64,000 nt of DNA, from the IMG/VR virus record IMGVR_UViG_3300000839_000006, one strand, 5' to 3'. The notes under the pieces are model-generated. The model made no database searches. It saw only the letters and a list, made by a program, of their open reading frames with translations, and was not told where the DNA came from. Below, one piece after another: positions 7,037-56,228 of this stretch. A program made the position numbers and the translations under genes. Each line of letters begins with the position of its first letter. The stretch's first letter is position 1. Source of the DNA: a virus.

Positions 7037-8063
7037 TATACTTGGTGGATATACATTACGAACAATTCCAGAACCTCCTGTTGGTTATAGTACTGATATA
7101 GAAATCACAGTTAATCCTACAGTTGGTGTAAGTTATCGAACTGTTTTCGCTAGAGGAGAAGCTGGTACTAGTATACTAAATATAGATTGGGGTGATGGTA
7201 ATGTTCAAAATTACAATCTTGTTGGAACAACTCCCAATGTTATTAACTATACATATTCAATATCTGGAAGTAAAACAATAAGAGTTACATCCGATGACAT
7301 TGTTGGAAGTATATTATTTGGTGTTAATGGTACTATTAATACTATTGCTAAGATATTAACTGGAATCCAAAAGTTTCGGGCACTTACTGCAAAAGAAATA
7401 CTTTATTGTTTTGCCTATGCTGAAACTTTTAATGGTCCTATACTGGCAACTTTTTCAGATGAAGATTTACCTTTAGTTGAAAATTTTAGTTATTGCTTTT
7501 CGCATTGGAGTACATTTAATCAGCCTTTACCTCAGAATTTTATGTCAGGAAATTATCCTAATGTAACTAATTTTCAAGGTTGTTTCGATTACTGGACTGT
7601 TTTTGATAAAGCGTTACCTCAGAATTTCATGTCTGGAAATTACCCTAATACTACTAGATTTACTGCATGTTTTAGGGATTGGCAGGCATTTAATCAGCCC
7701 TTACCTCAGAGTTTCATGTCGGGTAGTTGTTCCAGTGTAACTGAGTTCTCTGTTTGTTTTTATAATTGGAGGTCATTTAACCAACCCCTTCCAGTGGGGT
7801 TCATGTCAGGAAATTACCCTAGTGTAATTACTTTTGCTCTGTGTTTCTATAATTGGGTAAAATACATTGGAACAATACCTATTGTGAAATCCTTGAAATC
7901 AAATGTTGCTTTTAATCAATGTTATTATGGTAATTCCAGTATGACCGGAAACGGTATGCCTGTGGTTAATAACGCAGTTGTTCCGCTAGGTACTATATCA
8001 CAATGTTTTAATGGTTGCACCTCTCTATCTGATTACGCACAAATACCTTCGGGATGGAAATAA
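7029..8063 (+). CDS. BspA/DUF285-like LRR protein 1 (about 5 repeats of 29 aa)
   Basis: FNQPLPxxFMxGxYPxVTxFxxCFxxW repeats. Start reassigned to ATG 7029 (MFDILGGY). Ends CTSLSDYAQIPSGWK. Confidence 0.75.
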   Translation: MFDILGGYTLRTIPEPPVGYSTDIEITVNPTVGVSYRTVFARGEAGTSILNIDWGDGNVQNYNLVGTTPNVINYTYSISGSKTIRVTSDDIVGSILFGVNGTINTIAKILTGIQKFRALTAKEILYCFAYAETFNGPILATFSDEDLPLVENFSYCFSHWSTFNQPLPQNFMSGNYPNVTNFQGCFDYWTVFDKALPQNFMSGNYPNTTRFTACFRDWQAFNQPLPQSFMSGSCSSVTEFSVCFYNWRSFNQPLPVGFMSGNYPSVITFALCFYNWVKYIGTIPIVKSLKSNVAFNQCYYGNSSMTGNGMPVVNNAVVPLGTISQCFNGCTSLSDYAQIPSGWK

Positions 8064-8140
8064 TTATGAATGATATACTTGGTGGATATACGCATAGAAG
8101 CGTTGGACCATTAGTTCCAACGACTGAAATAGAGTTTGTT
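8015..8140 (+). repeat. 126-bp direct repeat copy 1 spanning an LRR gene junction
   Basis: Matches 10356-10481 with 9 mismatches by eye. 8037-8100 is a 64-bp identical core. Partial copies at 7029-7054, 8767-8808 and 11711-11757. Confidence 0.9.
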
Positions 8141-8803
8141 ATTACAGCCACTGTACCGCGTTCCATAGCTACTACAGTATTGGTTGATGGTACTGGTATC
8201 ATGTATAACAGCATAAATGGAGTTGAGGGAATTCCGTGGGAGATGGAAGAGTGGGTAACTGACCAGTTTTATACAAGTTATGGTGTTGGTGAACATGTGG
8301 TGCGTCTGTGGTCTTATAGTAATATATATAATGTAGATTTGGTATCTCAAAGTGTGCATTATGATATAACTACAATAAATGTGTGGCGTAGTGATACGAT
8401 AACAAGTATGCAGACTGCGCTTCGTGGTAATGTTAATGTACACACACTTATACCAAGTTTTGCATCAGATACATTACCATTGTGTACTAATTTTGCTGAT
8501 TGTTTTTCGCATTTGAATAGCTTGGTAACACCCTTACATCCTAATTTTATGGGTGGTGATTATACACGTGTTTTATATATGAACCAGTGTTTCGGTGATT
8601 GGGCTAGCTATGCTGGTCCTATCCCTATTGTAAACGCAAGCTCATACGCTAATTATTTCGGTTGTTATTATGGTAATAGTTTAATGACTGGAACTGGAAT
8701 GCCTGTAGTAAATAGTGCGCCTAACTCTACAAGCTATGCGTCATGTTTTAAAGGTTGTACTTCGCTCTCTGATTATGCACAAATACCTTCAGGATGGAAA
8801 TAA
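8066..8803 (+). CDS. BspA/DUF285-like LRR protein 2 (about 2 repeats)
   Basis: Starts MNDILGGYTHRS, has the same C-terminal cap, ends CTSLSDYAQIPSGWK. Confidence 0.7.
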   Translation: MNDILGGYTHRSVGPLVPTTEIEFVITATVPRSIATTVLVDGTGIMYNSINGVEGIPWEMEEWVTDQFYTSYGVGEHVVRLWSYSNIYNVDLVSQSVHYDITTINVWRSDTITSMQTALRGNVNVHTLIPSFASDTLPLCTNFADCFSHLNSLVTPLHPNFMGGDYTRVLYMNQCFGDWASYAGPIPIVNASSYANYFGCYYGNSLMTGTGMPVVNSAPNSTSYASCFKGCTSLSDYAQIPSGWK

Positions 8804-21692: not shown

Positions 21693-22376
21693 ATGACTCC
21701 CGATTCGCTGCTTTACCAACTGGCAGTGGATTTGAATGATGCAGGTGCTGGACACGAATTTACTACGTGGTCCGCAGAACAGCTAGGGGCGTATTTGATG
21801 GAAGCTATACAAGTTGCTTTTGTTGAACGCCCCGACCTGTTTATAGAGCATCGTATAATCCACTTAAAACCATGTTCTATCATACAGGATACATGTGATT
21901 GTACGCATGTAATCCGTGTACTAGGACAGTCCACCGCTGATGGACGAGTATTTAAAGAACTCCGTGTACGTAAGGCTAATGACAAGTTGTTGTGGACTGG
22001 TAGAACTTGCAAGTCTAAGACTGGTAAGTTCGAGCTTATTGAATATACTATTGATAGTAATACCGACACATTGCGTGTATACCCGCAAGTACCTGCCGGA
22101 CAAGATATATATGTATTGGTTGAATGTTCTGTTATTCCTAAAGATATAGGTGATGTTGTTGATACAGAGTTGTTGGCTGCAATTAAACAGTGGGTATTAT
22201 ACCGTGCTAAAACTGTTGATGCAGAACTTAACCCGAATATTTTTAATGTAGCAAAGTTACATCGTGATACATTTTTTGCGTTGTTAGCGATACAGAAAGA
22301 AAACAATGACCAGAAAGCGGAGGACGCAGACAATGCTAGACAAAGTAGTAATGTTCGAGCCGTACAGCAAAGTTAG
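21693..22376 (+). CDS. head-tail adaptor-like protein
   Basis: AGGAGA RBS. LAVDLND...W...L pattern and position after the head genes. Confidence 0.55.
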   Translation: MTPDSLLYQLAVDLNDAGAGHEFTTWSAEQLGAYLMEAIQVAFVERPDLFIEHRIIHLKPCSIIQDTCDCTHVIRVLGQSTADGRVFKELRVRKANDKLLWTGRTCKSKTGKFELIEYTIDSNTDTLRVYPQVPAGQDIYVLVECSVIPKDIGDVVDTELLAAIKQWVLYRAKTVDAELNPNIFNVAKLHRDTFFALLAIQKENNDQKAEDADNARQSSNVRAVQQS

Positions 22377-29877: not shown

Positions 29878-32800
29878 ATGGCTGGTGGCACATTTGGGTG
29901 GGGAACTGCACCCTCAGGACTCCCGAAACCGATGGGTATGGATGCTCTTATCAAGGCTACTGAGCCTTCTAAGAAAGAGCAGCGTGAACTTGCGCAGGAA
30001 CAGGCTACTACGCAAGCGAGGGCTATTGAGCAACAGGTACAGACAGACTTTAATGCCAATGAAAATTTTACGCAGTTGGCGTGGAGTGACCAGTTAAAGT
30101 ATATTGATGCGTGGGACAAAGAGTTTGGAGAGACTTGGCGTAAAGAAAATTTCGGTGATAACTGGGACTCTACAGATGCTAAGATTGCGCAACAGACTGC
30201 TCTAGCTCCATTGCGCAAGACCGCTAAAGATGGTGTAACACGTACTGCACAGACGTGGACTAATCTTGGAGATGATATAAAGCATGGTGTGCAGGATTTA
30301 TGGGCCTTGGCTCCTGCCACAACTGCTCGTGTTGCTACTGGTGCAACTCGTGAACATACACCAGAAGAAGATGCCGAGATGATTCGGCTGTATATAGCAC
30401 AAGATGATATTCAGAATAGCAGAGAATTATCAGAATATAGACAGCAACTACGAAAACGAATGGACCATCTCATACGGCAAGGTGGTGACCCTGACAATCC
30501 TAACTGGGAATTTGTTACGGCTGCGCTGCGTGATGGTGACTACGGCGATATTTTATCACTGGCTGCTAGTACTGCTGCCAGTAGTATTTCAACATCTATA
30601 CCTATACTTCTTGGACAGTTAGCTGGTAGAGGTATTGGTATGCTTGCAGGACCTGCTGGTGCTGCTGTGGGTGAATTTCTTGCAGAAGGTTTCAGTGCTG
30701 CCGCTGCCGCTGGTACATCAGGGCTTGATGCATCTGAGGTGTTTAATACTGTACGTAGGATGAAACCGGAAGTATTGCGTGAATCGCAAGCATATAAAGA
30801 TGCAAAGGCATCTGGAAGATTCGCTTCAGAGGAAGATATAATTAACTATGTTGCACTTAAAGGTGCAGATGCTGCGATGCCGGAACTTATGCTGGCAAAC
30901 GCTGCCGGGTCTTTCATAAGCCCCGCTGCTATGGCTGGTAAGACTGGTGCAGCCCGTTTACTTCCTGGTGGTATAGTCGGACGTACATTACAGGGTATCG
31001 GTCTTGGTACGGCTGAAGAAGCTTTACAGGAATCGTGGGTCACTAACGCTTCCAACAGAGCAATGATGCGGACAGTTCCAGAGTCTGGTATTACTCCGTA
31101 TGATGGTATGAAAGATTCCGCTTTACTTGGCGCACTCGGTGGTGGTCCAACTATTGGTGGTGCGGCTTTCGGGCGTGCCGCTGTTGATATGATGCGGGGT
31201 AGCAGTACAAATGTAGACCCGAATCTGCCGACTACTACAAATCCAAGTGACCCGAATCCTAACACGGCTGTTGTTGGTGGTGTGAATGTATATCAACAAA
31301 CACAAGCACCTGAAGCTGTACAACTTAATCAAACACAGATAGCTGAACGTAATGCACAGATTCAAGCTGGTCGCACAGCTATGAATGCTGCAACAACAAA
31401 AGCACAGGCACTCATCCATGATGGTGTTGATAATGCTTCTGTTGTAATGGATGACATTATTAATGACCTGTCCACAGCACAGCGTTCTGGTGTAGATTCT
31501 AATACTATTGAGAGTATTGTAGCTTCTGTAGATAATTCATCCAATGGAAAAGGTTTCGCTGCTCGATGGGCTACGGAGCTTTCAAACATTCAGCAGGCGG
31601 CACAGACTGCGCCTGCTACGAGTGTGGAACAGGCGACTGCAACACTTAATTCCATGACTGCCGATACCACTGGAGTTGATATTGACTTCACAAATGTGCA
31701 GGCTGCAATTGATATACTACAAGAAGATGGGCAGCTAACTCCTGAACAAGTAGACCAGTGGCGTGGCTACGCGCAGCAACGGCAGGCAGGTAGCACGTTA
31801 TATAATATACAGACTAATGGTGATTTCACAGATTCGGCTCAACGTACAGCATTTTATGACGCACTTAAAGTACTTGCGGAGGGTACCACTGCCCGTAATG
31901 TTGGGGGTTTCCTACAATCACAGCTTGATACGGTTTCTCAGGCATCCGGTGTTGATGCTGTTGCTGAATATCAGGCGCGGAGAAGGCAAACTCCGCAACC
32001 GATTCAAGTGGCTTCGCAGGCTGCACCCCCTTCCATTGTTCCCCGTCATAATGACGTACCTGTTCGTGGCTCTCAGGCGGCTCCTGCTGCATCTGAAGCA
32101 GCTCCGGCACCTTCGGGTCAGACAGCCCCTCAAACTGCCGCTGTACCGCCTCGTACAGTTGAGGCTCCAACTCGTGGTCTGCCCCGTGAGCGTGGTCATC
32201 TGGCGAGTGAGCGTGGGCGGGATGCTACAGTGGCTCGACTTCGGCAAGAGCTTACTCAGAGGAACGGTCCTATAAACCCTGCCACTGAAGCTATAACCGA
32301 GGCTACAACTGATGCAGCCGTACAGCAGTTCTTGCACCAGCAACTGTTGGCAAATGGTAGAACAGTAGAGTCCGCTGAGATAGAGTCCACAATCCTCACA
32401 CGGATGATGAATACACTCCGTAGCATTTCCGGTTTGACACATGCACAACAGCTTCGCCGCCTCACATTCGGTGTAGGTAAGAACCCTGTAGAAATAATGA
32501 ACAGCCTGTTTCAACTTGTATTCCACGGAAGCTCTAATCCACAAGCATTTACTGAAATAGACATGGATAGAATGTCTATGATGAATGATAGATGGGGGTT
32601 GTATGTAACATTCAGCAGATATCTTGCCGATAGCTATGCAGGAGTGAATGGACATTTATATGGAATAGAAGTTTCAGATACTGGTTATGCTGATTGGGGA
32701 TTACGTCTTGATAGACAACCTCCTGATGTACAGGAAAAATTACGTACAGTTGGTATGAATAATACACAAACTTTTTTACAATTTTATATACAATTACGTA

Positions 32801-35800
32801 AGCAGTTAGGAACCGCAAGAGCCGCTTCAGAACATTTGGCGCAAGCTGGTTTGAATGGTATTCGTTATTACTCTGGTTTACATACGGATTCGGCTGGTAA
32901 ATTTGTACAAGACCTTATTATTTTCAATAAGGATGCAATACTTTCATTGGATGTATTGCGTCAGGATAGTCGTGGACAAATAGACTTCCTCAGTGATGGT
33001 ACCGCACGTATAATATTTAGTGAAAATGCAGACGCATCTACTGCTATACATGAGTTTCAGCACTTTTACATGCAAGAGGCGTTCAACATTCTCTCCGATG
33101 AGTCCATACCTGACTCAGCTTACAAACGGAGACTTGCGGAGGACATGCGTGTTCTTGGTAAGTTTGCTGGTGTGGAAGGTGATGCTACACTACGGGATGC
33201 GTGGAGTACTGAACAGCATGAGACTATTGCGAAGGCTTTTGAGAAGTACATCCGTACTGGTAAGGCTCCTAATAACAGTCTCAAGTATGTGTTCGACAAG
33301 TTGAAGAAGTTGTTGACGGATGTATATGCCAAAGCAAAATACATAATGAAAGGCGACATCCCTGCTGATGTACGCAAAGTATTCGATAACCAACTTACGG
33401 GGTATACCAATGAGCAAGTTCGACAGATTGAGCAAGGAAGAACAGATAGCGTTGGTGAAGCAGGGAATCCAACTGATAGCCAATCAGAGGCCGATACCGG
33501 ACCAGTTGGCGATACAGTTCTCGCCCCGGATAATGCGCCGACTACTGGAACTGGTGGAACAGCTACACGCACAGGGACTGGTGGGGCCGCATACGCGGGC
33601 ACCGGAACGCCTCAAGCGAATATACAGCCTAGTCAACCGATACGCACCACCGGACAGAGAGCCGACAGCGGACGAAGTGGTGAGGTCATTAACGCCGCAG
33701 GCCCGGAATCAGATACTCAGCAACGAAGCAGTACTGGCTCGACAGAGCAACGCACAGGCGATGACGGACGCATCTCGGACACTGGCGTCCCTGAGGTAGA
33801 TTGGAATCCTGAACAAATTGCTGCTGAACGAGAAACACAGCTTGAGATAATTCGGGATAACTTGAGAGCCGATAATCCAGACCTGACGCCTGCACAGATT
33901 GAGAACATGGCGCAGGCTCAGTTATTCATGGAGCAGCAGGCTGATATAATATCTCCTGAAGAAGCTGTTGAGGTTGTGGAAGAGGCGCGTACAGCCAGAG
34001 AGCTTTCTGAAGAAGACCGTATGCAACGTGAAGTTGATAACAGGTCACTAGCCCGTATGCTGGCTGAACCGGGTGCAATACTACACCCGATTAATCAGAT
34101 GCAGGTTACTGAGCAAGAGCTTGACATTCTCATGCGTGGTACGCTTACACCAGATGCGGAAGTTGCAGGTAAGGCGAACAATATGAACAGGGACCAACCT
34201 GAATCCACCTCCGCACCACAACGTACTGCTGCCGAACCTGAGATAGAACTTACAGATGAAGAGAATGAGGTGGAGTCTCTTAGTGTTGCAGATACGGTAC
34301 GAAATATTATATCATCCATAGCTACACCAGACCCAATTGTTATAACTCAACGTGATGGTACGCATACATTGGATGCCAATCCACCTGTGGATAGTCAGAC
34401 AAACACAGCAGTTTCTGATATTATTATGACACAGGACAGAGAGATTACTGAATCACAAGAAACTGGAAGGCTTAGAAACCGTGCATTACGCGCACTGTGG
34501 AACAGTGGATTGCTTGGTTCTCCGCAGGCTGCTAGTCGTACACGTAATATTATGGCTACACTTGACACATGGTTAGCTGACGCAGACGGTAAGCTGCGTA
34601 TGATGTTGCATGAGATGGCTCCTGCTAATAAGGGTGGTACTGATACTAACCCGGCAGTACAGGCTCTCATTACTCATAAACCGAAAGTAGGTGCTATTCT
34701 ACAGCTACTCATGGACCAGTTTATAACACCTGTTAGTGTAGAGCTTAAACGTGTTTCACAATCTACAGGTGTTTCGATTATTGAAGTAATGCGTGACTTG
34801 GGAGAAGCTACACGCGATTACGCTATAATTGAACGTGAACCGCAGTTCCGTGCCAGACTTTCAGCAGAACTGGATGCGGCACAGGCTGAATTACTGCGTA
34901 ATCCAACACCTGCAAATCAGGCCAGAGCGCAAGAGTTGCAGATACAGTTCGACCACTATGTGTCGTGGCAGGAAAATCCTGACATGGCTACACGTATCCC
35001 CGGACAGCCTGAACCTGACCAGTTCCATGTCAAGGTCGGTAACAAGACCTTGGATGTGAGATATGCTGGCGGCATGACACGTTGGCAGGCAGAGAATCAC
35101 TACATTTCTATGGTAGAGAAATATGGTTTGGAAACTGTTGAACGTATAACTGACATGCAACGCACTTCTATTCGTGGTATAGCCCGCACATTACAACAAA
35201 ATGGATGCATTGATGATGCTACAGCAGAATCTTGGCGTAACCAATTCTTTTACGCACCACTTATGGTAGAGAATCCTAGTGGTGACGGAGCGGTGAATGA
35301 CATATCCATGTTCTCACCAAAAATGAATTACCGCCTGCGGGGTTCACAAACTCCTGCAATGGATTCATGGTCTGCTATGAACATGTTTGCGCAACGTGCT
35401 GCTAAATCCATAGCCATGCAAGAACTTGGTGTGCATCTGAATGAAGTTTACAAACGTGTCGGTGAAAATAACCGTTGGGGATTTATTCGTGAAGATGCTG
35501 ACCAAATATACGCACAAAAAGAAGCAGCTCAAGGTAGTGACGTTGATGCACTCAATGCGCAATTAGAGCGTATGGATGCAATCATTCGTGTTATGGAAGA
35601 CCAGACTGCTGAAGATGGTACAGTTACGCAGGTTATGAAAACTTATGGACTCCGGTTTGACCAAGAGAAAAACCCCGGTATGCATGTGTCATTTCGTAGG
35701 GCATTGGAGACAGACCCAACAATAGTTTCTAAAGCTGCACGTGCTATGGAGACAGCCACGAAGGGTTACGGAATGATGATGACATTCTTCCGTCCATTCT

Positions 35801-37593
35801 TCACAGCTACTAACGCTTATATAGATGCAAATGAACGTCTGCTCAATATGCAAGCTAGAACATGGGTTAGTGCTGATGGGCAGAGTGTATCTGGTACAGA
35901 AGTATCTGCTACATACTCCATGATGATAATGAACTCCGATTTTATATCAGCACATCTTAGAGATGAGCTTGGTAAAGGTCCTGCTATTGGACATGAAACC
36001 ACGTGGATGGAGCAGATACGCAATGAGTTTAAATATAGTGGCGTGATGAATAGCACGTTCAGAACCATGTTGGAGTTCCCTGCAAACAAATCCGTAGCAG
36101 AAGTTAATGACCTGCTAAAACAGCTTGACCCCAGTATGCCTAAAAAAATTGGCAGGACGGCTTATAAGGCATTAATGGCCTATTCCGACCTGATGTATAA
36201 CGCGCCGATTTTCGCCCAGTACGCGGCTCTCAGGAAGCACGGGCTATCCTCTCAGGCGGCGGCTGCGGCAACGCTTGACATGATGGACATGCGCCGGGTA
36301 GGAACAGCTACGCAGCACTTGAAAAAGTTCTTCCCGTTTGTTCCAAGTGTGACTCAAGGTGCCAAGCAACTGTTCCGTACTGCTGGTATTCATGGTGCTA
36401 TGGTTAATGGTAATGCAGATATGAAACGCGCAGCCTTGCGTGGTTGGGTAACAATGTCAGCAGTGTCCATGTCCTTATATGGGTTGTCCAGTATGCTGTC
36501 TGCAAGTGCAGGTGAGGATGATGCAGGATATAACTACTTTGATATGATTCCTATTGGTAAACTTATGCAGGGTATACCGATATTCACTGATGACAAAGGT
36601 AGTTACTACATGATTAATGGTGGCTTCGGTCCATTCCAGATTGCGTCAGCCATTGGTTACGGGATGTATCGTTATGAAAAAGGATTGATGGATGAATATG
36701 AATTTGGTAGTACCATAATAAATGCGTTCACAAAGAATATTGTGCCGGGTAGTCAACCGGAGTTTGCTATGAAAGAAGCTCCGTTGGCTTACATGGTGCA
36801 AACATTGTCACCCGCATTACTTAAACCAACTCTGGAAGTTATTACTGGTAGAAACTACTTAGGTGCTAACATTACACAGGAGCAGTATCTTAACCCAACA
36901 CAACGTAGTTCAGATGTTAATCAGCTTGGTACTGCTGATTTCTGGAAAGACCTTACAAAGTTTATGTATGATACCACTGGATGGGATACTGCACCTGAGA
37001 ATGTACGTCACTGGGTGAACGGGATGTCCGCTGGTGTATTACAAATCATTCCATACTTCGCTGAAAAAGCTACTGGGCATAGACCTATACCGGGGTATGA
37101 AACAGTGCGTGACCAACTTGGTATATGGGGAATACTTGGACTTTCAAAAGTGTACACACCCGGAACAGATAAAACATCGCAAGCTTATTATAGCATGAAA
37201 GAACAAATGGAAGCGCAAGTTAAAGATGCTGGAATTGATGCAGTATTGAAAGCACATGGAAGTAACAACCGAGAGTATGTCCGTGCATATAAGACACGTA
37301 TATTTGAACAGGCTGGCTTCTCACCTGAGTGGATTCATGACTGGTGGCTCAAAGAGGAAGCTGATAAGGATTTAACCGGGGCTGCTACTCCGTACAAGGA
37401 TAAGCTTGAAGCTATGCGTAAAGCTGGTATTGAAGACCCCACATTATTCGATGACCAGTTGCTTCAGTGGCGGCAAGCTACAGATGCAACTCGTACAAAC
37501 GCAGTACGCCGTTCATTCTACTGGACGAATCCACGCTCTCGCCAGTATGGTGTGCCAAATAGGGATACCGCAAATATGTTGCGGAACCGATAA
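29878..37593 (+). CDS. giant polyvalent ejection protein (ART-like domain, HExxH domain, C-terminal LPD38-like region)
   Basis: 2571 aa. VFHGS...WGLYVT...ADSY; STAIHEFQH; YFDMIP..K...IPIF near the C-terminus. Confidence 0.7.
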   Translation: MAGGTFGWGTAPSGLPKPMGMDALIKATEPSKKEQRELAQEQATTQARAIEQQVQTDFNANENFTQLAWSDQLKYIDAWDKEFGETWRKENFGDNWDSTDAKIAQQTALAPLRKTAKDGVTRTAQTWTNLGDDIKHGVQDLWALAPATTARVATGATREHTPEEDAEMIRLYIAQDDIQNSRELSEYRQQLRKRMDHLIRQGGDPDNPNWEFVTAALRDGDYGDILSLAASTAASSISTSIPILLGQLAGRGIGMLAGPAGAAVGEFLAEGFSAAAAAGTSGLDASEVFNTVRRMKPEVLRESQAYKDAKASGRFASEEDIINYVALKGADAAMPELMLANAAGSFISPAAMAGKTGAARLLPGGIVGRTLQGIGLGTAEEALQESWVTNASNRAMMRTVPESGITPYDGMKDSALLGALGGGPTIGGAAFGRAAVDMMRGSSTNVDPNLPTTTNPSDPNPNTAVVGGVNVYQQTQAPEAVQLNQTQIAERNAQIQAGRTAMNAATTKAQALIHDGVDNASVVMDDIINDLSTAQRSGVDSNTIESIVASVDNSSNGKGFAARWATELSNIQQAAQTAPATSVEQATATLNSMTADTTGVDIDFTNVQAAIDILQEDGQLTPEQVDQWRGYAQQRQAGSTLYNIQTNGDFTDSAQRTAFYDALKVLAEGTTARNVGGFLQSQLDTVSQASGVDAVAEYQARRRQTPQPIQVASQAAPPSIVPRHNDVPVRGSQAAPAASEAAPAPSGQTAPQTAAVPPRTVEAPTRGLPRERGHLASERGRDATVARLRQELTQRNGPINPATEAITEATTDAAVQQFLHQQLLANGRTVESAEIESTILTRMMNTLRSISGLTHAQQLRRLTFGVGKNPVEIMNSLFQLVFHGSSNPQAFTEIDMDRMSMMNDRWGLYVTFSRYLADSYAGVNGHLYGIEVSDTGYADWGLRLDRQPPDVQEKLRTVGMNNTQTFLQFYIQLRKQLGTARAASEHLAQAGLNGIRYYSGLHTDSAGKFVQDLIIFNKDAILSLDVLRQDSRGQIDFLSDGTARIIFSENADASTAIHEFQHFYMQEAFNILSDESIPDSAYKRRLAEDMRVLGKFAGVEGDATLRDAWSTEQHETIAKAFEKYIRTGKAPNNSLKYVFDKLKKLLTDVYAKAKYIMKGDIPADVRKVFDNQLTGYTNEQVRQIEQGRTDSVGEAGNPTDSQSEADTGPVGDTVLAPDNAPTTGTGGTATRTGTGGAAYAGTGTPQANIQPSQPIRTTGQRADSGRSGEVINAAGPESDTQQRSSTGSTEQRTGDDGRISDTGVPEVDWNPEQIAAERETQLEIIRDNLRADNPDLTPAQIENMAQAQLFMEQQADIISPEEAVEVVEEARTARELSEEDRMQREVDNRSLARMLAEPGAILHPINQMQVTEQELDILMRGTLTPDAEVAGKANNMNRDQPESTSAPQRTAAEPEIELTDEENEVESLSVADTVRNIISSIATPDPIVITQRDGTHTLDANPPVDSQTNTAVSDIIMTQDREITESQETGRLRNRALRALWNSGLLGSPQAASRTRNIMATLDTWLADADGKLRMMLHEMAPANKGGTDTNPAVQALITHKPKVGAILQLLMDQFITPVSVELKRVSQSTGVSIIEVMRDLGEATRDYAIIEREPQFRARLSAELDAAQAELLRNPTPANQARAQELQIQFDHYVSWQENPDMATRIPGQPEPDQFHVKVGNKTLDVRYAGGMTRWQAENHYISMVEKYGLETVERITDMQRTSIRGIARTLQQNGCIDDATAESWRNQFFYAPLMVENPSGDGAVNDISMFSPKMNYRLRGSQTPAMDSWSAMNMFAQRAAKSIAMQELGVHLNEVYKRVGENNRWGFIREDADQIYAQKEAAQGSDVDALNAQLERMDAIIRVMEDQTAEDGTVTQVMKTYGLRFDQEKNPGMHVSFRRALETDPTIVSKAARAMETATKGYGMMMTFFRPFFTATNAYIDANERLLNMQARTWVSADGQSVSGTEVSATYSMMIMNSDFISAHLRDELGKGPAIGHETTWMEQIRNEFKYSGVMNSTFRTMLEFPANKSVAEVNDLLKQLDPSMPKKIGRTAYKALMAYSDLMYNAPIFAQYAALRKHGLSSQAAAAATLDMMDMRRVGTATQHLKKFFPFVPSVTQGAKQLFRTAGIHGAMVNGNADMKRAALRGWVTMSAVSMSLYGLSSMLSASAGEDDAGYNYFDMIPIGKLMQGIPIFTDDKGSYYMINGGFGPFQIASAIGYGMYRYEKGLMDEYEFGSTIINAFTKNIVPGSQPEFAMKEAPLAYMVQTLSPALLKPTLEVITGRNYLGANITQEQYLNPTQRSSDVNQLGTADFWKDLTKFMYDTTGWDTAPENVRHWVNGMSAGVLQIIPYFAEKATGHRPIPGYETVRDQLGIWGILGLSKVYTPGTDKTSQAYYSMKEQMEAQVKDAGIDAVLKAHGSNNREYVRAYKTRIFEQAGFSPEWIHDWWLKEEADKDLTGAATPYKDKLEAMRKAGIEDPTLFDDQLLQWRQATDATRTNAVRRSFYWTNPRSRQYGVPNRDTANMLRNR

Positions 37594-46359: not shown

Positions 46360-46551
46360 CTAAAAGTAGTCATCAGGATTTCTCTTTATATGAACACGAT
46401 GTATTTCACTATATGGGATGAAGTGATTTTCATCATGTTCGCCAATAATCCTATAGTATACCCCACCGGGAAAGTATTGTACCTCGGATAAATCATCCCA
46501 CTCAGTTTCATCCTCATTAGTCCATTCAATCCGCATCGTATAACTAATCAT
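46360..46551 (-). CDS. small hypothetical protein
   Basis: Coupled to neighbouring genes. Confidence 0.5.
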   Translation of the reverse strand: MISYTMRIEWTNEDETEWDDLSEVQYFPGGVYYRIIGEHDENHFIPYSEIHRVHIKRNPDDYF

Positions 46552-47179
46552 TAGGCACCTCCGGTCTGTTACGCATTACATTTCTAAGGAATATAGCCTC
46601 TGCCAGAGCATCTTGCAGGGCGTGATGCTTCACCACAGGCTTAACTTTAAGGTCTGACACGTCACCAGCATGTCGAAGGAACTCCTCGCCTACTAGTCCA
46701 AGTGTGCGAATGGAGTGGTTGTTCCAAACCTTCCACGGAACTTCAAACTTGTACTGTTGATATGCATGGGCGAGAAGTCTGTTGTCAAACTCAGGCCCAT
46801 TACCCCACAACTTAACACCCTCTGGCAACCAACAGGCGAAATCAGTAAAAACTTTCACAACGAAGCACCCGGTTTCAAAAGCTAACCCATCCCACGCTTC
46901 AATAGGTTGTTGCTGCCACCATTCCAGCGTTGACTTATCAATGGAGCGACCAAATGTAGCTGACCTAAAATCAATAGCCCTGTAAAATCCACCAACTATC
47001 TGATAGTCTTTGTCAAGACCAACTGCACCTAGAGATATGATAGCTGCATCTTCTGCAAGACCAAGTGTTTCAAGGTCAAGGACTACATGCACAACACCAG
47101 CATTTGACCCATCGTAATCTTTATTCGATGTATGTTCAGCCAGTATTTTTTCTATAGGACTCATTAGCAAACTATTCAT
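46544..47179 (-). CDS. DEDDh 3'-5' exo(ribo)nuclease
   Basis: VVLDLETLG, WGNGPEFD, HHALQDA motifs. Confidence 0.85.
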   Translation of the reverse strand: MNSLLMSPIEKILAEHTSNKDYDGSNAGVVHVVLDLETLGLAEDAAIISLGAVGLDKDYQIVGGFYRAIDFRSATFGRSIDKSTLEWWQQQPIEAWDGLAFETGCFVVKVFTDFACWLPEGVKLWGNGPEFDNRLLAHAYQQYKFEVPWKVWNNHSIRTLGLVGEEFLRHAGDVSDLKVKPVVKHHALQDALAEAIFLRNVMRNRPEVPND

Positions 47180-47819
47180 GGGATTCTCCCGTATACAGGT
47201 CTTCAAAGAAAACTATGTGGTCAACGTAATATTGCAGTTCATACATAAACAATCCCATCAAGTGTCTCATATCCGGGTGGGCCGCAGGACTGGTACGCAG
47301 GGCGATAATGTGTCTCCACTCACGCAGGTTTGCGGAGACATTTATCTCGGTCTTGAGGCTGTTAGGCAGTACTGACCTAGCAATCTGCGGAGAACAACCA
47401 GCTTTAAGCATAGCATTATATGTTTCTTCTGCATCTGTTACTGAACCGTACCATAATTCATACGGTGTAAAACCATCATCGTTTACACTAGAGTTCTCAA
47501 CCACCATTGTGAACGGCTTTATGAACTCCATATCCTTACCGCTATAGTTGCAGTACCTTGTGCTTTCCTGTGCGAAAGAGCATAAGCGGTGCCGCACCAG
47601 TTCATGGGACACACCACGGTCAGTAGTGAACCGCGCTGTGATACTGGCGAACTCAAGCATGGCATGATGCCCACTACTTATTAGACGCTTCACCAGTTCA
47701 TAGTCTGCTTTATCGGTCTTCGCCTCAGACTGGTAGCATGTCCGTGCAGCGGTGGCTACTACATCAACCGGGTTTGGTGTTGCGAAAAGTATTTCGCATC
47801 TTGGTTCAACTATCTTCAT
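47172..47819 (-). CDS. thyX: flavin-dependent thymidylate synthase
   Basis: RHRLCSFAQESTRY matches the ThyX signature RHRxxSxxxxSxR. Confidence 0.93.
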   Translation of the reverse strand: MKIVEPRCEILFATPNPVDVVATAARTCYQSEAKTDKADYELVKRLISSGHHAMLEFASITARFTTDRGVSHELVRHRLCSFAQESTRYCNYSGKDMEFIKPFTMVVENSSVNDDGFTPYELWYGSVTDAEETYNAMLKAGCSPQIARSVLPNSLKTEINVSANLREWRHIIALRTSPAAHPDMRHLMGLFMYELQYYVDHIVFFEDLYTGESHE

Positions 47820-51228: not shown

Positions 51229-53772
51229 TCACACCACCGTAAAGTCGTAACCAGATTCTACTTCACAATCAATCGGTATGCCCTGTGCCCACGGCGGACA
51301 CTGACGCAACCAGTGGTAGTAAATCTCTTCAACTACTTTATGCCATGCCTCAGGTACTACCGAACCCCATGCGTCATGGATGTTAATATGCATCGGTATC
51401 CTTGAGATTGTATGCATCTGTACAGCTTGCCAACTAAGTATGGCGAAGGCCAGTCCCTGATTGCAGTTATGAACTATCATTGGTTCACCTGTACCACGCA
51501 CTACGAATCTGTTTCGTGGGCCACAGTCGAGGATGTCGTACACTGGGGTGCTGCATAGCATGTGGTAATAAAGTGCGTTCCCTGTCTGCCCCTTTAACGC
51601 TTCAACGGTTGCAGGTTTTTTAATCTCACATGCTTTTTTCCAACGTCTACCAGTCCACACCAAGTGGTCTGGTGTCATACGCACACCTTGTACTTCGATG
51701 CATTGTTGATTGTGTTTATATACCACACCTCCGTGGTAATAAAAATCATCACCATCAAAGATACGGTCACTTGCTAACACATTTTGAATAGGAACCCAAC
51801 CACGCCATGTGTACACTTCAACATCTTGTGCAATACAGTTATTAAATACAAGCCCACCATACACATGTTTCTTCTGGACTCTACCCTTGGCAAACTGGTC
51901 ATACACAAAGGACGGCTTGTTATGTTCATTCAACTCAGTACGTAGATTAGGGTACCGTATCCAGTAACCATTTGGCAACATGATACTGGGGACTGTACGT
52001 CCGAACACTTGCGCCTGACCATCATAATACAGAGTATTACCTTGAGGGCCACCGAAGTATCCAGCATTACCATTGAGCATGGCGACAAGAACATTCTCGC
52101 ATGTCTTCCAGAACTGTTTAATCATGGCATACTTGGTACGATAAATCTTGTTGGCTCTAGTGGCCTCTTTCAAATGCCCTGCCGGGGTGCTGTCTATGGT
52201 TCCATCCTCCTCTGTAAAGGACAGGTGAATACCTTGCTGGCTTAGGCGAAGTGCATACTTGGCAGCACCAATACCGTATTGACTACTAAGAATACCTTCC
52301 TTACCTACGTTACGCATAGTCTTATACTTCGGAGCTTCTGCCGCAGACTTGCCCTCACCCTTGGTGTAGTGAAGTATCTTTTCTGGTGCCACGGAGTATA
52401 TGTCTGAAGCAAGGTTAGCATATGGGTCACGCTTATTGGCGAAGTCATCAAGTAGCTGTTGCTCACACGCCAGCCATGCCCCGGTTCTACACTCAATCTG
52501 CGAGGAGTCACCAGCCACCACCAGCATTCCGGGGGCCACATTGATACACTTCCTCAGAGTCTTATCCCCTGTTCGCTTGGCAAGGTTCTGTAAGTTGATG
52601 CCATCACTGACATATTCCCCATCATCCGTGCCGCCCGTGTATCTGCCCGTGCCAGCAAGCCAGCACTCAAGGGGAACTGGCATGACACCGCGCCGGGATA
52701 TGCCCAAAAAAGTCTCACAGCGGCTCATAGCGATGCTTGAGTTGTTTTCGGCCCTCGCAGTAGCCAGAGCAGCTATATCGGGGTTCTCGTGCCTCTGTAG
52801 AGCCATGAACTCAAGGTCTTTCTTGGCAAGGGCCGGGGTCAGAATCACGTAGTCCTCAGTTTCAAGCTGCTCACGTACCGCCCGCCATGTTTTGGCTATG
52901 GTATGGTCGCTGACCTCCAAGTCTGTGCCAGTAATCCCTATAGCAGCCAGTGACTGCTCCCAACCCTGCATCATTTCCTCAAGCTGTTTCTTACGAGTGG
53001 CAGTCTGCGCGGCTGATACCTTGTATGGAACCACCGCACCTATCTGTTGGAATAACGCAGCACATTTATCCTTTGAGCGTATGGCCTTCAGGAATGCCTC
53101 TGTTGTAGGAAACTTGAACAGGTGCTTGAGCCTGTCCATTGCAGTCTGGTGTTGTAGTTCCAGTTTTCCATGATACTCTTCCAGCATAGGCTTGTTCAGG
53201 ATGAACGGCGACTGCGTGTACATGCGTGTTGTCATGGAGATTTGATGCAGTGCATCCATTGTCATGTGCGGCAACATCTTGTTCACATTCTGTCGCAGCC
53301 CCTCCACGTCACCAGTGCAGTACCGCTTGTACTCGAACAGTTCCTGTTGTGTCAGGTCTTGGATATGGCGTCCAGACATGGACTCAATGAACCCGCCCTT
53401 GGTATGGGTGCCAAGAAACTCACAGAGTGCCGCTTGACTCTCACGGGTAAGGCGAGAAATACCCGTCCACCGCGCCATTGCACGAGTGCATATTGGATTC
53501 GCAATCTTGATACCAAGGTAATCCTCCGTAATGAACGCATCGAACTTCGCGTTCTGCATGTACACCCATGTGTTGGGGTCATCTAACGGGAGTATAGTAA
53601 GGACACTACGAATCAAATGTGCGGGTACCATCTGCACGGGCTGGTCGTCCACTGCTACACCGAGGAGATGCAGTTCAAACCTAGGGTCTCTGACATATTC
53701 CTCAATGGACATCTTACGCAGTGTGTATGTGCCGTTCTCGTAATATGATTCGTAGTCAAGGAAGATGTTCAT
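51229..53772 (-). CDS. polA: family A DNA polymerase with 3'-5' exonuclease domain and an intein
   Basis: LDYESY (ExoI), GDSSQIECR (motif A), RNVGKEGILSSQYG (motif B), IHDAW (motif C). Confidence 0.93.
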   Translation of the reverse strand: MNIFLDYESYYENGTYTLRKMSIEEYVRDPRFELHLLGVAVDDQPVQMVPAHLIRSVLTILPLDDPNTWVYMQNAKFDAFITEDYLGIKIANPICTRAMARWTGISRLTRESQAALCEFLGTHTKGGFIESMSGRHIQDLTQQELFEYKRYCTGDVEGLRQNVNKMLPHMTMDALHQISMTTRMYTQSPFILNKPMLEEYHGKLELQHQTAMDRLKHLFKFPTTEAFLKAIRSKDKCAALFQQIGAVVPYKVSAAQTATRKKQLEEMMQGWEQSLAAIGITGTDLEVSDHTIAKTWRAVREQLETEDYVILTPALAKKDLEFMALQRHENPDIAALATARAENNSSIAMSRCETFLGISRRGVMPVPLECWLAGTGRYTGGTDDGEYVSDGINLQNLAKRTGDKTLRKCINVAPGMLVVAGDSSQIECRTGAWLACEQQLLDDFANKRDPYANLASDIYSVAPEKILHYTKGEGKSAAEAPKYKTMRNVGKEGILSSQYGIGAAKYALRLSQQGIHLSFTEEDGTIDSTPAGHLKEATRANKIYRTKYAMIKQFWKTCENVLVAMLNGNAGYFGGPQGNTLYYDGQAQVFGRTVPSIMLPNGYWIRYPNLRTELNEHNKPSFVYDQFAKGRVQKKHVYGGLVFNNCIAQDVEVYTWRGWVPIQNVLASDRIFDGDDFYYHGGVVYKHNQQCIEVQGVRMTPDHLVWTGRRWKKACEIKKPATVEALKGQTGNALYYHMLCSTPVYDILDCGPRNRFVVRGTGEPMIVHNCNQGLAFAILSWQAVQMHTISRIPMHINIHDAWGSVVPEAWHKVVEEIYYHWLRQCPPWAQGIPIDCEVESGYDFTVV
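51466..51837 (-). mobile_element. 124-aa mini-intein in the DNA polymerase
   Basis: Block A CIAQDVEV, block B TPDH, block F VYDIL, block G IVHN followed by Cys+1. No room for a homing endonuclease. Confidence 0.9.
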
Positions 53773-53885
53773 ACGTCATACCACCAGCATAGAAATTTAG
53801 CCAACAACATAGCACCTATTACAACAGAGAACATCATAACACCAATAATAATTAAAGCATATTTAATAGGTACTGGTTCAAACAC
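53769..53885 (-). CDS. 38-aa hydrophobic peptide absent from the track
   Basis: GTG start. TGA overlaps the polA ATG (ATGA). Confidence 0.4.
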   Translation of the reverse strand: MFEPVPIKYALIIIGVMMFSVVIGAMLLAKFLCWWYDV

Positions 53886-54147
53886 GATGAATAACATTAA
53901 GCCAGTCCTCCGCAGTTATCTTGTTGCAATTATAGATATCCTCAAAAGGACAGGTTATATCGCAGTGTTCAGTATTTCTGCAATGTTCTTTCAGTTTACC
54001 AGCCAAGAACTTTACCTTCTTCAACAGCACTGGAATAGTCTTTATAGCTTTACGGTCAGCCTGTTCGTGCAGGTCGCAATCCATACTAGGGTGCCCTTCC
54101 GGGTGTATAGCCTTGTGATACCGTGCCTCAATCTCTTTTATTTCCAT
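53878..54147 (-). CDS. Cys-rich small protein 1
   Basis: HCDITCP...C.KITAEDWL. Confidence 0.55.
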   Translation of the reverse strand: MEIKEIEARYHKAIHPEGHPSMDCDLHEQADRKAIKTIPVLLKKVKFLAGKLKEHCRNTEHCDITCPFEDIYNCNKITAEDWLNVIHRV

Positions 54148-54389
54148 ACAGATAACCAATCCTCTGTAGTTACTAGGCGACAAGTAATACTGGGGAATGC
54201 ACACATAGTTGAACCTAAAGGACAATCCCCTTCACGACAGGCCACCGACAAGTAATGCGCTATGTCACGCTGTTCATCCAGCTTAGCAGCGTCCGGTGGT
54301 ACCCACTCCACACCTCCAACATAAATATATCCCAATTCACGAAGTGTACGAATGGCAGCTATTGCCGCTCTGATTGTTAAATCACTCAT
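54138..54389 (-). CDS. Cys-rich small protein 2
   Basis: CREGDCP...CAFP.ITC.LVTTEDWL. Confidence 0.55.
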   Translation of the reverse strand: MSDLTIRAAIAAIRTLRELGYIYVGGVEWVPPDAAKLDEQRDIAHYLSVACREGDCPLGSTMCAFPSITCRLVTTEDWLSVWK

Positions 54390-54670
54390 ATGATGCGCCC
54401 CGTAATATACTCAGTTAATTTATCACGGCATACAAATATTAGACAACTACACTCATCCCTTACTGGACATTTATCGCAGCTAACAAGCTCCACCAACCAG
54501 TCAATCGCCACATCACGCTGCCTTACTGCTATACGAGTAGGCTCATGTTCTATAAGCATACGGTCAAGCACCATGTGACAAGCGTCAGTACCCTTATTAA
54601 TGTGACAATCCTGTACCAGCGGACAGCAGTTACAACCATTGTCGAGGATATACTTTTTAAGATGTATCAT
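54386..54670 (-). CDS. Cys-rich small protein 3
   Basis: Two CxxCP modules. Confidence 0.55.
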   Translation of the reverse strand: MIHLKKYILDNGCNCCPLVQDCHINKGTDACHMVLDRMLIEHEPTRIAVRQRDVAIDWLVELVSCDKCPVRDECSCLIFVCRDKLTEYITGRII

Positions 54671-54972
54671 TGCACATGCTCCCGCAGCCAGTCGTTTATC
54701 ATCTCAGCGCAATGAGCATCACTTTCTGAACCGCAATCCCCAGTCCATGCAGGACAGTGGTCACACGCATGGTGAACATCCGTTGCCTTGACAAAGCTCT
54801 GTATCATGTAGTCAAGTCTGCGCTGTACCACATCCATGTCATTAAGATACGCTGTGAGATTCCGTATACATTCGTCACTACCGGGTGGCGGAAAATCGCA
54901 GTCCAGTACAGGACACTGCCTACAGTGACCACCGATAGCAACCCTATGCACGTATGCTTTAATCTTTTCCAC
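54667..54972 (-). CDS. Cys-rich small protein 4
   Basis: Two CxxCP modules, GGAGG RBS, GTG start. Confidence 0.55.
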   Translation of the reverse strand: MEKIKAYVHRVAIGGHCRQCPVLDCDFPPPGSDECIRNLTAYLNDMDVVQRRLDYMIQSFVKATDVHHACDHCPAWTGDCGSESDAHCAEMINDWLREHVQ

Positions 54973-55057: not shown

Positions 55058-55684
55058 CTAAGAGTTACCTGTTCTGTTGCGAAACTGGTCAATCTCTTCT
55101 TTGGTAGCCAACCGCCAGCGAACTATGTTCTGTGTGGTGTCAGCCTGTTCACCCCAAGGCAGTTCCTCTTGCATCGCTGGAACATAGTTGGTGCCGTTTG
55201 CGAGTTGTGCAACAACTACAGTCTGCAAGTTGGTAGCACATGTCTTGTTGGCAGCACGGTCTTTATCCGTCCACTCCCGCCAAGCATAGGGGTCTTCCGC
55301 TTCTGGCAGAGTCAGCCCTGCAAGGTCAAACTCAAGGCTCTCAATGTCGCCGCCCTGTTCAACAAAGCGGGCAAGCTTTTCTTCAATCAATGCACCATCC
55401 CAAGTTACATACTTTCGTATCGTGGTGTACGGGATGCCAAGTATCTTTGCCATAGCCTTCTGGTCTACACCGAGTTCTGTATACCGCATGACATAGCGGT
55501 ATACATCATACCGGGTTTCAGAACGCTTGCCATTACTGGAAACCTTAGGCGTAGACTCTTGCAACTTGGCTTCCAGCACAGCGATACGGTCTTCTGCGGC
55601 CTTCGCCCTCTTCACCATGATAGGGAGGTACTGTTCAATCAGCCCCTTCACAGTAAGTTCAAGCTGTTCAAGTCGCTGTTGCAT
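55058..55684 (-). CDS. coiled-coil plus HTH protein
   Basis: QKAMAKILGIPYTTIRKY HTH pattern. Confidence 0.55.
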   Translation of the reverse strand: MQQRLEQLELTVKGLIEQYLPIMVKRAKAAEDRIAVLEAKLQESTPKVSSNGKRSETRYDVYRYVMRYTELGVDQKAMAKILGIPYTTIRKYVTWDGALIEEKLARFVEQGGDIESLEFDLAGLTLPEAEDPYAWREWTDKDRAANKTCATNLQTVVVAQLANGTNYVPAMQEELPWGEQADTTQNIVRWRLATKEEIDQFRNRTGNS

Positions 55685-55693
55685 GGTATCACC

Positions 55694-56179
55694 CTACGCC
55701 TTGGGTGCAGGGGCCGGGTCAGCTTTCTTGGGTGCGGCAGCAGGTACAGGTTCAGGTTTCTTTGGCGCAGGAGCCGCAGCAGGGGCAGCATCGCTCCGCT
55801 TTTCCCACAACTTCATATCCTGCATCTTCTTACGCCGGGTCTTCTGCAAGTCCTTGCAAATCAGAGACTGGCTGCGCTTGTACCCGCACAGGTCACGGTA
55901 GGATTCAGGAGTGTGACCAATGGTAGCGAGGTAACGCTTTGTGATAATCTTGAATTGTTTACCAGTGACGCAGCAGGTCACAGTCTTGTCACGAATAGCA
56001 GTAGCCGGGTCGCATACCAGTTTGGGAGCGGTTTCAACAGTGCCACCAGCGGCAGCAGCCGCAAGTTCTTCAGCTACCTGATGCACATAGGCACCAAGTT
56101 CAACGGGAGTCATAGCTTTAACACCAGCCTGTGCTTTCGCAATTTCCATAGCCATCGCCATAAATTCAGTTGCAGACAT
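55694..56179 (-). CDS. mucR: MucR/Ros-family nucleoid-associated regulator with Ala/Pro/Lys tail
   Basis: EIAKAQA..V..MT, DPATAI, TC...GKQFK, YRDLCGYK...LIC..LQ..RRKKM.DMKLWE. Start reassigned to ATG 56179 after AAGGAAGG. Confidence 0.82.
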   Translation of the reverse strand: MSATEFMAMAMEIAKAQAGVKAMTPVELGAYVHQVAEELAAAAAGGTVETAPKLVCDPATAIRDKTVTCCVTGKQFKIITKRYLATIGHTPESYRDLCGYKRSQSLICKDLQKTRRKKMQDMKLWEKRSDAAPAAAPAPKKPEPVPAAAPKKADPAPAPKA

Positions 56180-56228
56180 TATTGTCCTTCCTTTGGGTTT
56201 GTGGTGCTTATGCACCGTTAGTGAGTCT

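Follow-up and report, generated by a model that had tools for sequence, protein, structure and literature searches.

A phage-encoded MucR/Ros-family protein in which three of the four zinc ligands are replaced

Ros of Agrobacterium and the MucR proteins of Brucella, Sinorhizobium and Caulobacter are built of N-terminal helices, a linker, a Ros87-type domain and a basic C-terminal helix. In Ros zinc is essential, as it is needed for folding, and the loss of three ligands is normally destructive; Ros87 (2jsp) is, to our knowledge, the only member of the family with a solved structure. Some natural members are zinc-free, as had been stated in an earlier note on the DNA studied here: Ml4 and Ml5, two proteins of Mesorhizobium loti, need no zinc either to fold or to bind DNA, relying instead on a larger hydrophobic core and a hydrogen-bond network (PMC5693944, PMC9779718), and both, being accepted members of the family, also lack the Cys2His2 feature (PMC9779718). 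MucR homologues in phages were already counted in a 2020 review, which has five such phages and in which deltaproteobacteria make up 'group B' (PMC7710501). Silencer copies on mobile elements are an established theme as well and are reviewed in PMC7074111 and PMC6925973, both cited in PMC7710501; examples are CgpS of the Corynebacterium prophage CGP3, Lsr2-like proteins of actinophages, H-NS of phage EPV1 and Sfh of plasmid R27.

The protein described here, P0001, has the same general architecture as Ros and MucR, but it is phage-encoded, it carries a tail rich in Ala, Pro and Lys, and it keeps only one of the four zinc ligands. Its gene lies in a window of 64,000 nucleotides (the window being the whole stretch of DNA that was analysed), which is almost all of an IMG/VR virus record of 65,279 bp with a CheckV completeness of 100%. 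The phage genome encodes a large terminase, a portal, an internal virion protein, a collagen-like tail fibre and an SU10-type adaptor, and its replication and metabolism genes include a family A DNA polymerase, a helicase, a primase-helicase, ThyX and exonucleases. An integrase search detected no tyrosine integrase in the genome, and the phage looks virulent; tRNA genes were not found in it either. The GC content of the phage is 46%, and a megablast comparison of 19 kb of the window with GenBank phages gave no match.

A few other features of the window may be recorded in passing. Genes for an Rv2179c-like 3'-5' exoribonuclease, a ThyX thymidylate synthase and the SU10-type adaptor are located at 46544-47819 (minus strand) and 21693-22376 (plus strand), and the adaptor suggests a podovirus with a morphology of the SU10/phiEco32 type. 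A giant protein of 2571 aa, with a 'large polyvalent protein' domain (LPD38) near its C-terminus, is encoded at 29878-37593 (plus strand) and is probably an ejected virion protein. The sequence GATC occurs once in the whole window, as compared to about 246 occurrences expected from the base composition.

The gene and its ribosome-binding site are positioned as follows.

55694..56179, minus strand: MucR/Ros-family gene encoding P0001 (161 aa plus stop), an open frame; Pfam PF05443, E 8.4e-27; profile of the relatives against Ros87, E 1.1e-15

56186..56193, minus strand: Shine-Dalgarno-like AAGGAAGG, 6 nt upstream of the ATG, read from the sequence

The match to the Pfam ROS_MUCR profile scores 94.1 bits against a cut-off of 25.4, i.e. 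far above chance, and covers the full length of the profile (residues 6-125 of P0001, profile positions 2-123 of 123), while the profile built from the relatives of P0001 finds Ros87 (2jsp). Given this match and the complete phage genome around it, with its terminase, portal, DNA polymerase A, helicase, primase and tail fibre, the original description of the gene as a phage-encoded MucR/Ros homologue is correct. Other searches with P0001 gave little: there was no match in PHROGs, the sole match in NCBIfam was a low-complexity one between the tail and a PspA proline-rich region, and tblastn returned a single weak phage match. An alternative GTG start at 56215 was rejected, the ATG at 56179 being backed by the ribosome-binding site and by the start points of the homologues. 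A TTGACA-17-TATTTA sequence seen by eye ahead of the gene had no match in a promoter scan, and no terminator-like site was found near the gene. A recent acquisition of the gene from a high-GC host was also rejected: its GC3 is 0.50 and that of its neighbours 0.42-0.54, and its raised overall GC is due to the Ala/Pro tail only.

Three regions can be distinguished in the protein.

56045..56179, minus strand: N-terminal two-helix region, residues 1-45 (AF2 helices 3-18 and 25-43, pLDDT 93-95), in which MEIAKAQAGVKAMT aligns with ALEIVKAQAGVRxMT of the relatives

55796..55996, minus strand: Ros87-like DNA-binding domain, residues 62-128, including the basic helix TRRKKMQDMKLWEKR (alignment A1; AF2 pLDDT ~97)

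55697..55795, minus strand: Ala/Pro/Lys-rich C-terminal tail, residues 129-161, predicted to be disordered (pLDDT 60-70, without secondary structure)

Residues 1-45 are the counterpart of the part that oligomerises in the studied MucRs. The alignment with the relatives and the two predicted helices agree with the claim that the N-terminal oligomerisation region has been retained, and the same holds for the basic helix, which is present as claimed. In the DNA-binding domain K81, R82 and the stretch of the basic helix are conserved, R115 and W125 being invariant columns of A1. The best PDB fold match of the AF2 model is Ros87 (2jsp) with a probability of 0.97 but an E value of 0.13 and a TM score of 0.45, and the alignment behind it is rich in zinc-binding relatives; the best viral fold match is a protein of an uncultured phage that is annotated as a ROS/MUCR regulator. 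The AF2 confidence for the domain is driven by this alignment of zinc-binding relatives and is uninformative on metal-free folding.

The tail had been regarded as an addition and as histone-like, and both views have to be revised. Its 33 residues comprise 13 Ala, 10 Pro, 5 Lys and 3 acidic ones (net charge ~+2, pI 9.4), so that Lys accounts for 15% and Ala plus Pro for 70% of the tail; this is much less basic than a histone H1-type tail, and the strongly Lys-rich basic repeats of the histone H1-like or PAKKA type, as in Hc1 and in the tail of mycobacterial HupB, are missing. Similar Ala/Pro/Lys tails are found in the related-phage orthologues (P0005, P0007, P0008, P0013, L054) and in several other relatives. 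Since all four orthologues carry such a tail, it is ancestral in the phage group rather than added; it is also only weakly basic.

The conspicuous peculiarity of P0001 lies at the zinc-ligand positions.

55973..55975, minus strand: ligand 1, Cys69 (TGC), kept; invariant column in alignment A1

55964..55966, minus strand: ligand 2 position, Thr72 (ACT) replacing Cys; column at least 90% Cys in A1; at least 2 nt changes from TGY

55931..55933, minus strand: ligand 3 position, Tyr83 (TAC) replacing His; column at least 90% His in A1

55919..55921, minus strand: ligand 4 position, Ile87 (ATT) replacing His; column at least 90% His in A1; at least 2 nt changes from CAY

The Cys2His2 zinc coordination of the family (C-x2-C-x9/10-H-x3/4-H) is thus lacking in P0001, whose finger stretch is VTCCVTGKQFKIITKRYLATIG; the codons read C69, T72, Y83 and I87, in agreement with the initial observation that the second Cys, the His and the last ligand are replaced by T, Y and I. 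The consensus with which P0001 had been compared, TCLECGK.FK.L..KHL..HG, matches real relatives, e.g. P0003 and L002. P0001 belongs to the Desulfobacterota-type branch ('group B', PMC7710501), in which the relatives have the spacing C-x2-C-x10-H-x3-H, e.g. VTCLECGKSFKILTVRHLSRHG in P0003, whereas Ros has C-x2-C-x9-H-x4-H. A frameshift or a sequencing error behind the ligand changes was rejected, as the changes are in frame and affect three separate codons, as ACT, TAC and ATT differ from TGY, CAY and CAY by at least 5 base changes in total, and as the flanks align perfectly. Because the three replacements need at least five nucleotide changes, the metal-free state appears to be old.

Searched exhaustively with HMMER, a set of 1.8 billion cluster representatives yielded 312 relatives. 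The ligand columns read CCHH in 131 of the best 150 of these, among which C,T,Y,I is found in P0001 alone. Searches of IMG/VR, of the JGI metagenomes, of the GTDB genomes and of a set of 5.8 billion proteins did not find the exact variant (peptide CCVTGKQF), so that in all collections searched it is a singleton, present on one contig and with no relative above 52% identity. It had been pointed out beforehand that substitutions shared by close host homologues would speak against the proposal; no homologue with the same substitutions was found in any collection searched.

The pattern of conservation in the rest of the protein is different. Alignment A1 contains 36 sequences, with 6 invariant columns and 11 columns that are at least 90% conserved, and P0001 keeps all of the former (6/6) and 8 of the latter, the sole three departures being the ligands. 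If three departures were placed at random, the probability that all of them fall on the four ligand columns would be 4/680 = 0.006, which is a post hoc figure. Outside the ligands P0001 is 46-62% identical to its relatives in the finger core and 43-71% in the basic region, as compared to 41-79% and 43-86%, respectively, for the canonical proteins among themselves (the near-identical pair P0005/L054 set aside), i.e. the non-ligand identities of P0001 are within or just below the canonical ranges. Its terminal branch measures 1.01 and the median is 0.87, in a tree of 86 proteins that is almost unresolved. Since the departures are confined to the three ligands and needed at least five nucleotide changes, the pattern speaks for a loss of the metal site that was compensated and selected, and against decay.

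P0001 is not the only member of the family that is poor in ligands. Seven others were found (P0024, P0058, P0081, P0136, P0052, P0063 and P0075), and their ligand 4 position is occupied by F, Y or N in all seven cases. As this residue is aromatic in 6/7 of them, and Ile in P0001, it seems that the metal cavity gets filled in ligand-poor members, at least this is what the sequences suggest. P0024, P0058 and P0081 have C/S, D, T/H and F/N at the ligand positions, the full set being missing in 3/3 representatives (C,D,T,F; S,D,H,F; S,D,H,N). These three proteins share one syntenic phage-like region with Bro-N, Prim-Pol, RusA and lysozyme, and the loci of this second lineage (L004, L005 at 8001-8444, L006, L007) also contain a helicase and many small ORFs. 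Since the region is unrelated to the window phage, the zinc site has been lost in at least two phage lineages. On the other hand, CCHH is found in all 15 MucR genes on high-GC IMG/VR contigs and in all of about 45 cellular or metagenomic loci.

Unusual architectures were also seen. P0052, P0063 and P0075 are short MucR forms (81-105 aa) without the N-terminal region or the hairpin cysteines, in which the last His is replaced by Phe or Tyr. P0042, P0010, P0041 and P0018 are multi-domain relatives of MucR, namely one of 464 aa in which the MucR finger is repeated six times, two in which it occurs twice, and a fusion of 380 aa whose MucR unit stands behind a long N-terminal extension (XRE-type HTH by eye).

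It is instructive to compare P0001 with Ml4 and Ml5. All three are natural members of the family without a complete ligand set, but Ml4 and Ml5 are chromosomal while P0001 is phage-borne; P0001 retains its first cysteine but has Tyr and Ile in place of both histidines and Thr in place of the second cysteine, and its zinc-free folding is proposed. Ml4 and Ml5 presumably keep their histidines, and the loss of both histidines and of one cysteine in P0001 goes further. The nearest relatives of P0001 are Desulfobacterota-type and phage proteins with an intact CCHH, which implies that its ligand loss is probably independent of that of Ml4 and Ml5.

Two of the genes downstream of the MucR gene are positioned as follows.

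55058..55684, minus strand: partner gene, whose product of 208 aa combines a long N-terminal helix with an HTH (GIPYTTIRKY) and a Trp-rich domain at the C-terminus; the gene starts 9 nt past the MucR stop

51229..53772, minus strand: family A DNA polymerase, the synteny anchor (PHROG 17, E 3.5e-44)

The order MucR, coiled-coil/HTH gene, DNA polymerase A is common to five contigs, i.e. the window, L003, L008, L024 and L054 (G001:C66), the MucR orthologues being P0005 on L003, P0007 on L008 and P0008 on L024. The proteins closest to P0001 are 46-52% identical to it, and the DNA polymerase of the window is 50-58% identical to the polymerases that lie downstream of MucR in the four other contigs. 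L054 (JAFQBW010000009.1), a contig of 64,046 bp from goat caecum with the same three genes, has a terminase 59-63% identical to that of the window, and L024 has about thirty small ORFs ahead of MucR, as the window does. MucR is thus a conserved gene at the border of the small early genes and the replication module in this phage group. Orthology rests on synteny here, because the tree of 86 proteins, with its 4 starred branches, cannot place P0001. As CCHH is kept in 4/4 of the other syntenic orthologues, an intact DNA-binding finger appears to be the ancestral, selected state of the gene in the phage group.

The host of the phage can be approached through the same comparisons. The nearest cellular homologues of P0001 are in Desulfovibrionales, and from the affinity of the MucR sequence, which is the sole guide in this matter, we infer that these may be the hosts. 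One related phage was binned with a methanogen: L054, a near-complete phage genome, forms part of a Methanocorpusculum MAG in which no other MucR is present, and this is either a binning error or a clue to the host.

The partner gene follows MucR by 3-11 nt in the window, L003, L008 and L024 and by 4 nt after the MucR ORF in L054, and it is predicted to be co-transcribed with the MucR gene. Its orthologues (L003:599-1354, L008:699-1523, L024:10512-11213 and L054:3487-4203) can be aligned over the full length (A3) and share the HTH motif IPYTT[VI]R.Y as well as a Trp-rich C-terminal beta domain that ends in RW[KR]xA. The 208-aa protein had no match in Pfam, PHROG or NCBIfam, and its AF2 model (pLDDT 67) gave generic HTH fold matches only (E >0.1). 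We speculate that the HTH partner may be the specific regulator of the module. Between the HTH gene and the DNA polymerase the window also contains four tandem small Cys-rich ORFs (about 83-115 aa, 53878-54972, minus strand). These paralogues are 25-29% identical to one another and have the C-terminal motif C-x6-C-x7-C-x5-D-W-L in common; the two tested had no Pfam match, and other genes are found at the same spot in the related phages.

On these grounds we propose that P0001 is a zinc-independent but still DNA-binding MucR-like phage protein with a nucleoid-associated or regulatory role, a proposal to which we would give an even chance. The structural zinc site would be replaced by ordinary packing of the side chains of Thr72, Tyr83 and Ile87 beside the kept Cys69, and the N-terminal helices would self-associate. 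Binding to AT-rich DNA would be the task of the Ros87-like domain, with its basic helix RRKKMQDMKLWEKR, and of the flexible tail rich in Ala, Pro and Lys; the oligomers might then coat or bridge this DNA, and P0001 would act on transcription together with the tightly coupled HTH protein. No T7-type RNA polymerase gene was detected in the phage, by a search that missed its positive control as well; if the phage relies on the host RNA polymerase, a likely use would be the transcriptional control of AT-rich DNA during infection, the target being perhaps the phage's own early region, host genes, or sites that are otherwise held by host MucR. The earlier note had offered two functions, zinc-independent DNA binding and the poisoning of host MucR oligomers. 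The former fits better because four orthologues keep the intact finger and P0001 keeps the other conserved columns; the latter is left without positive support, and the domain is neither truncated nor decayed.

A phage-borne MucR has some parallels in other systems. CgpS, the Lsr2-like proteins, H-NS and Sfh are copies on mobile elements of a silencer family that is typical of a bacterial lineage, and P0001 may be another such copy. P0001 differs from them in that its family is MucR, for which there is no experimental phage example, and in that the metal site has been lost. A prophage-silencing role such as that of CgpS is unlikely because the phage has no integrase and looks virulent. The proteins p6 of phi29 and TF1 of SPO1 are phage-encoded DNA-coating proteins that serve temporal control. 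Here the analogy would be one of role only, P0001 being a small, presumably abundant and putatively DNA-binding early protein beside replication genes and with a paired regulator, and there is no relation in sequence or fold.

The poisoning of host MucR is, in our opinion, rather unlikely. P0001 would co-oligomerise with host MucR via its N-terminal helices and, as a dominant-negative subunit, weaken the silencing of the AT-richer DNA that the phage brings in; its own finger might be crippled, or the mixed oligomers might be unable to bridge DNA. The retention of the N-terminal region fits such a role, and residues 1-45 are 40% identical to the cellular-type P0002 as compared to 27-30% to P0005/P0007, although these are small numbers. 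In this branch, cellular MucRs are found in Desulfovibrionaceae, Bilophila and Desulfomicrobium, where their loci have a GC content of 55-65%; a phage of 46% GC is therefore the kind of DNA on which a MucR-type silencer would naturally act. MucR paralogues form heteromers, according to a passage in PMC5693944 that cites Caulobacter MucR1/MucR2. No protein antagonist of MucR has been described, the mechanisms of anti-silencing being stated to be unknown until the action of c-di-GMP was found (2025, PMC12560781), and our literature searches found no phage anti-MucR system, just as had been supposed at the outset.

Comparison with described antagonists does not favour the poisoning of host MucR. 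H-NST of E. coli islands, gp5.5 of T7 and Arn and MotB of T4 might share a role with P0001, i.e. the relief of silencing of AT-rich incoming DNA, but gp5.5 and Arn have unrelated folds, and H-NST is a truncated oligomerisation domain. Poison subunits of the H-NST type have no DNA-binding domain, whereas P0001 is of full length, with a complete, conserved DNA-binding domain in which all non-ligand conserved positions are kept. Four sister-phage orthologues keep the zinc finger, so the function of the gene in the phage group would need it. Moreover, this reading presupposes a host with a MucR, and the methanogen MAG that contains one related phage contig has no other MucR.

A more far-reaching version, which we regard as quite doubtful, would make the zinc-less phage MucR, perhaps together with its HTH partner, a dedicated antagonist of a MucR-type xenogeneic silencer of the host. 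P0001 would enter host MucR oligomers or compete for AT-rich sites, with the result that the AT-richer phage genome escapes silencing. If this were true it would be the first protein anti-MucR system, and the repeated loss of the metal site in phage MucRs (two lineages) would mark a shift from silencer to counter-silencer.

It is improbable that the metal site has been rearranged, e.g. with Cys69, Cys70 and His89 as ligands together with Cys98, Cys108 or water. Cys70 adjoins ligand 1, His89 lies two residues past ligand 4, Cys98 and Cys108 are in the same domain, and coordination spheres as unusual as CysAspHis2 are known in the family (PMC5745721). However, the candidate ligands are all present in CCHH relatives too (LCGY and the Cys before K109 in many of them), and are hence not compensations: C70 is found in P0009, P0015 and P0022, and H89, as HGH, in P0011 and P0013, all with the complete zinc site. 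Tyr and Ile at the two histidine positions would, furthermore, fill the cavity, and adjacent cysteines in a beta strand face opposite sides.

Finally, decay is likewise improbable. P0001 would then be a relic MucR copy, unable to fold after the loss of its metal site and heading for loss itself, which would agree with the need of Ros for zinc in folding, with the normally destructive effect of losing three ligands and with the presence of the variant in one contig only. However, the gene has an intact reading frame behind a good ribosome-binding site, conserved columns are departed from at the ligands only and the overall divergence is ordinary, the ligand codons have changed by at least 5 nt without damage elsewhere, the position of the gene is conserved in five phages with tight coupling to the next gene, and phage genomes purge dead genes fast.

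Phage-borne MucR homologues, zinc-free members of the family and silencer copies on mobile elements are already known. What is new here is how far the ligand loss has gone, Thr, Tyr and Ile standing in place of one cysteine and both histidines, that it has taken place in a phage group with a fixed, syntenic pair of MucR and an uncharacterised HTH partner, and that ligand loss recurs in phage lineages. MucR is an H-NS-like silencer of foreign DNA in alphaproteobacteria, and the Desulfobacterota branch of the family is unstudied. If the counter-silencer reading were true, MucR silencing would be open to study with a phage tool; if not, P0001 would be one more divergent regulator. A group of gut phages in which MucR is a fixed early or middle gene beside a new HTH partner may serve as a natural system for the way in which phages use a silencer, and the CCHH orthologues and the C,T,Y,I variant could together be seen as a natural experiment in which a structural zinc site gives way to side-chain packing, beyond what is seen in Ml4 and Ml5.
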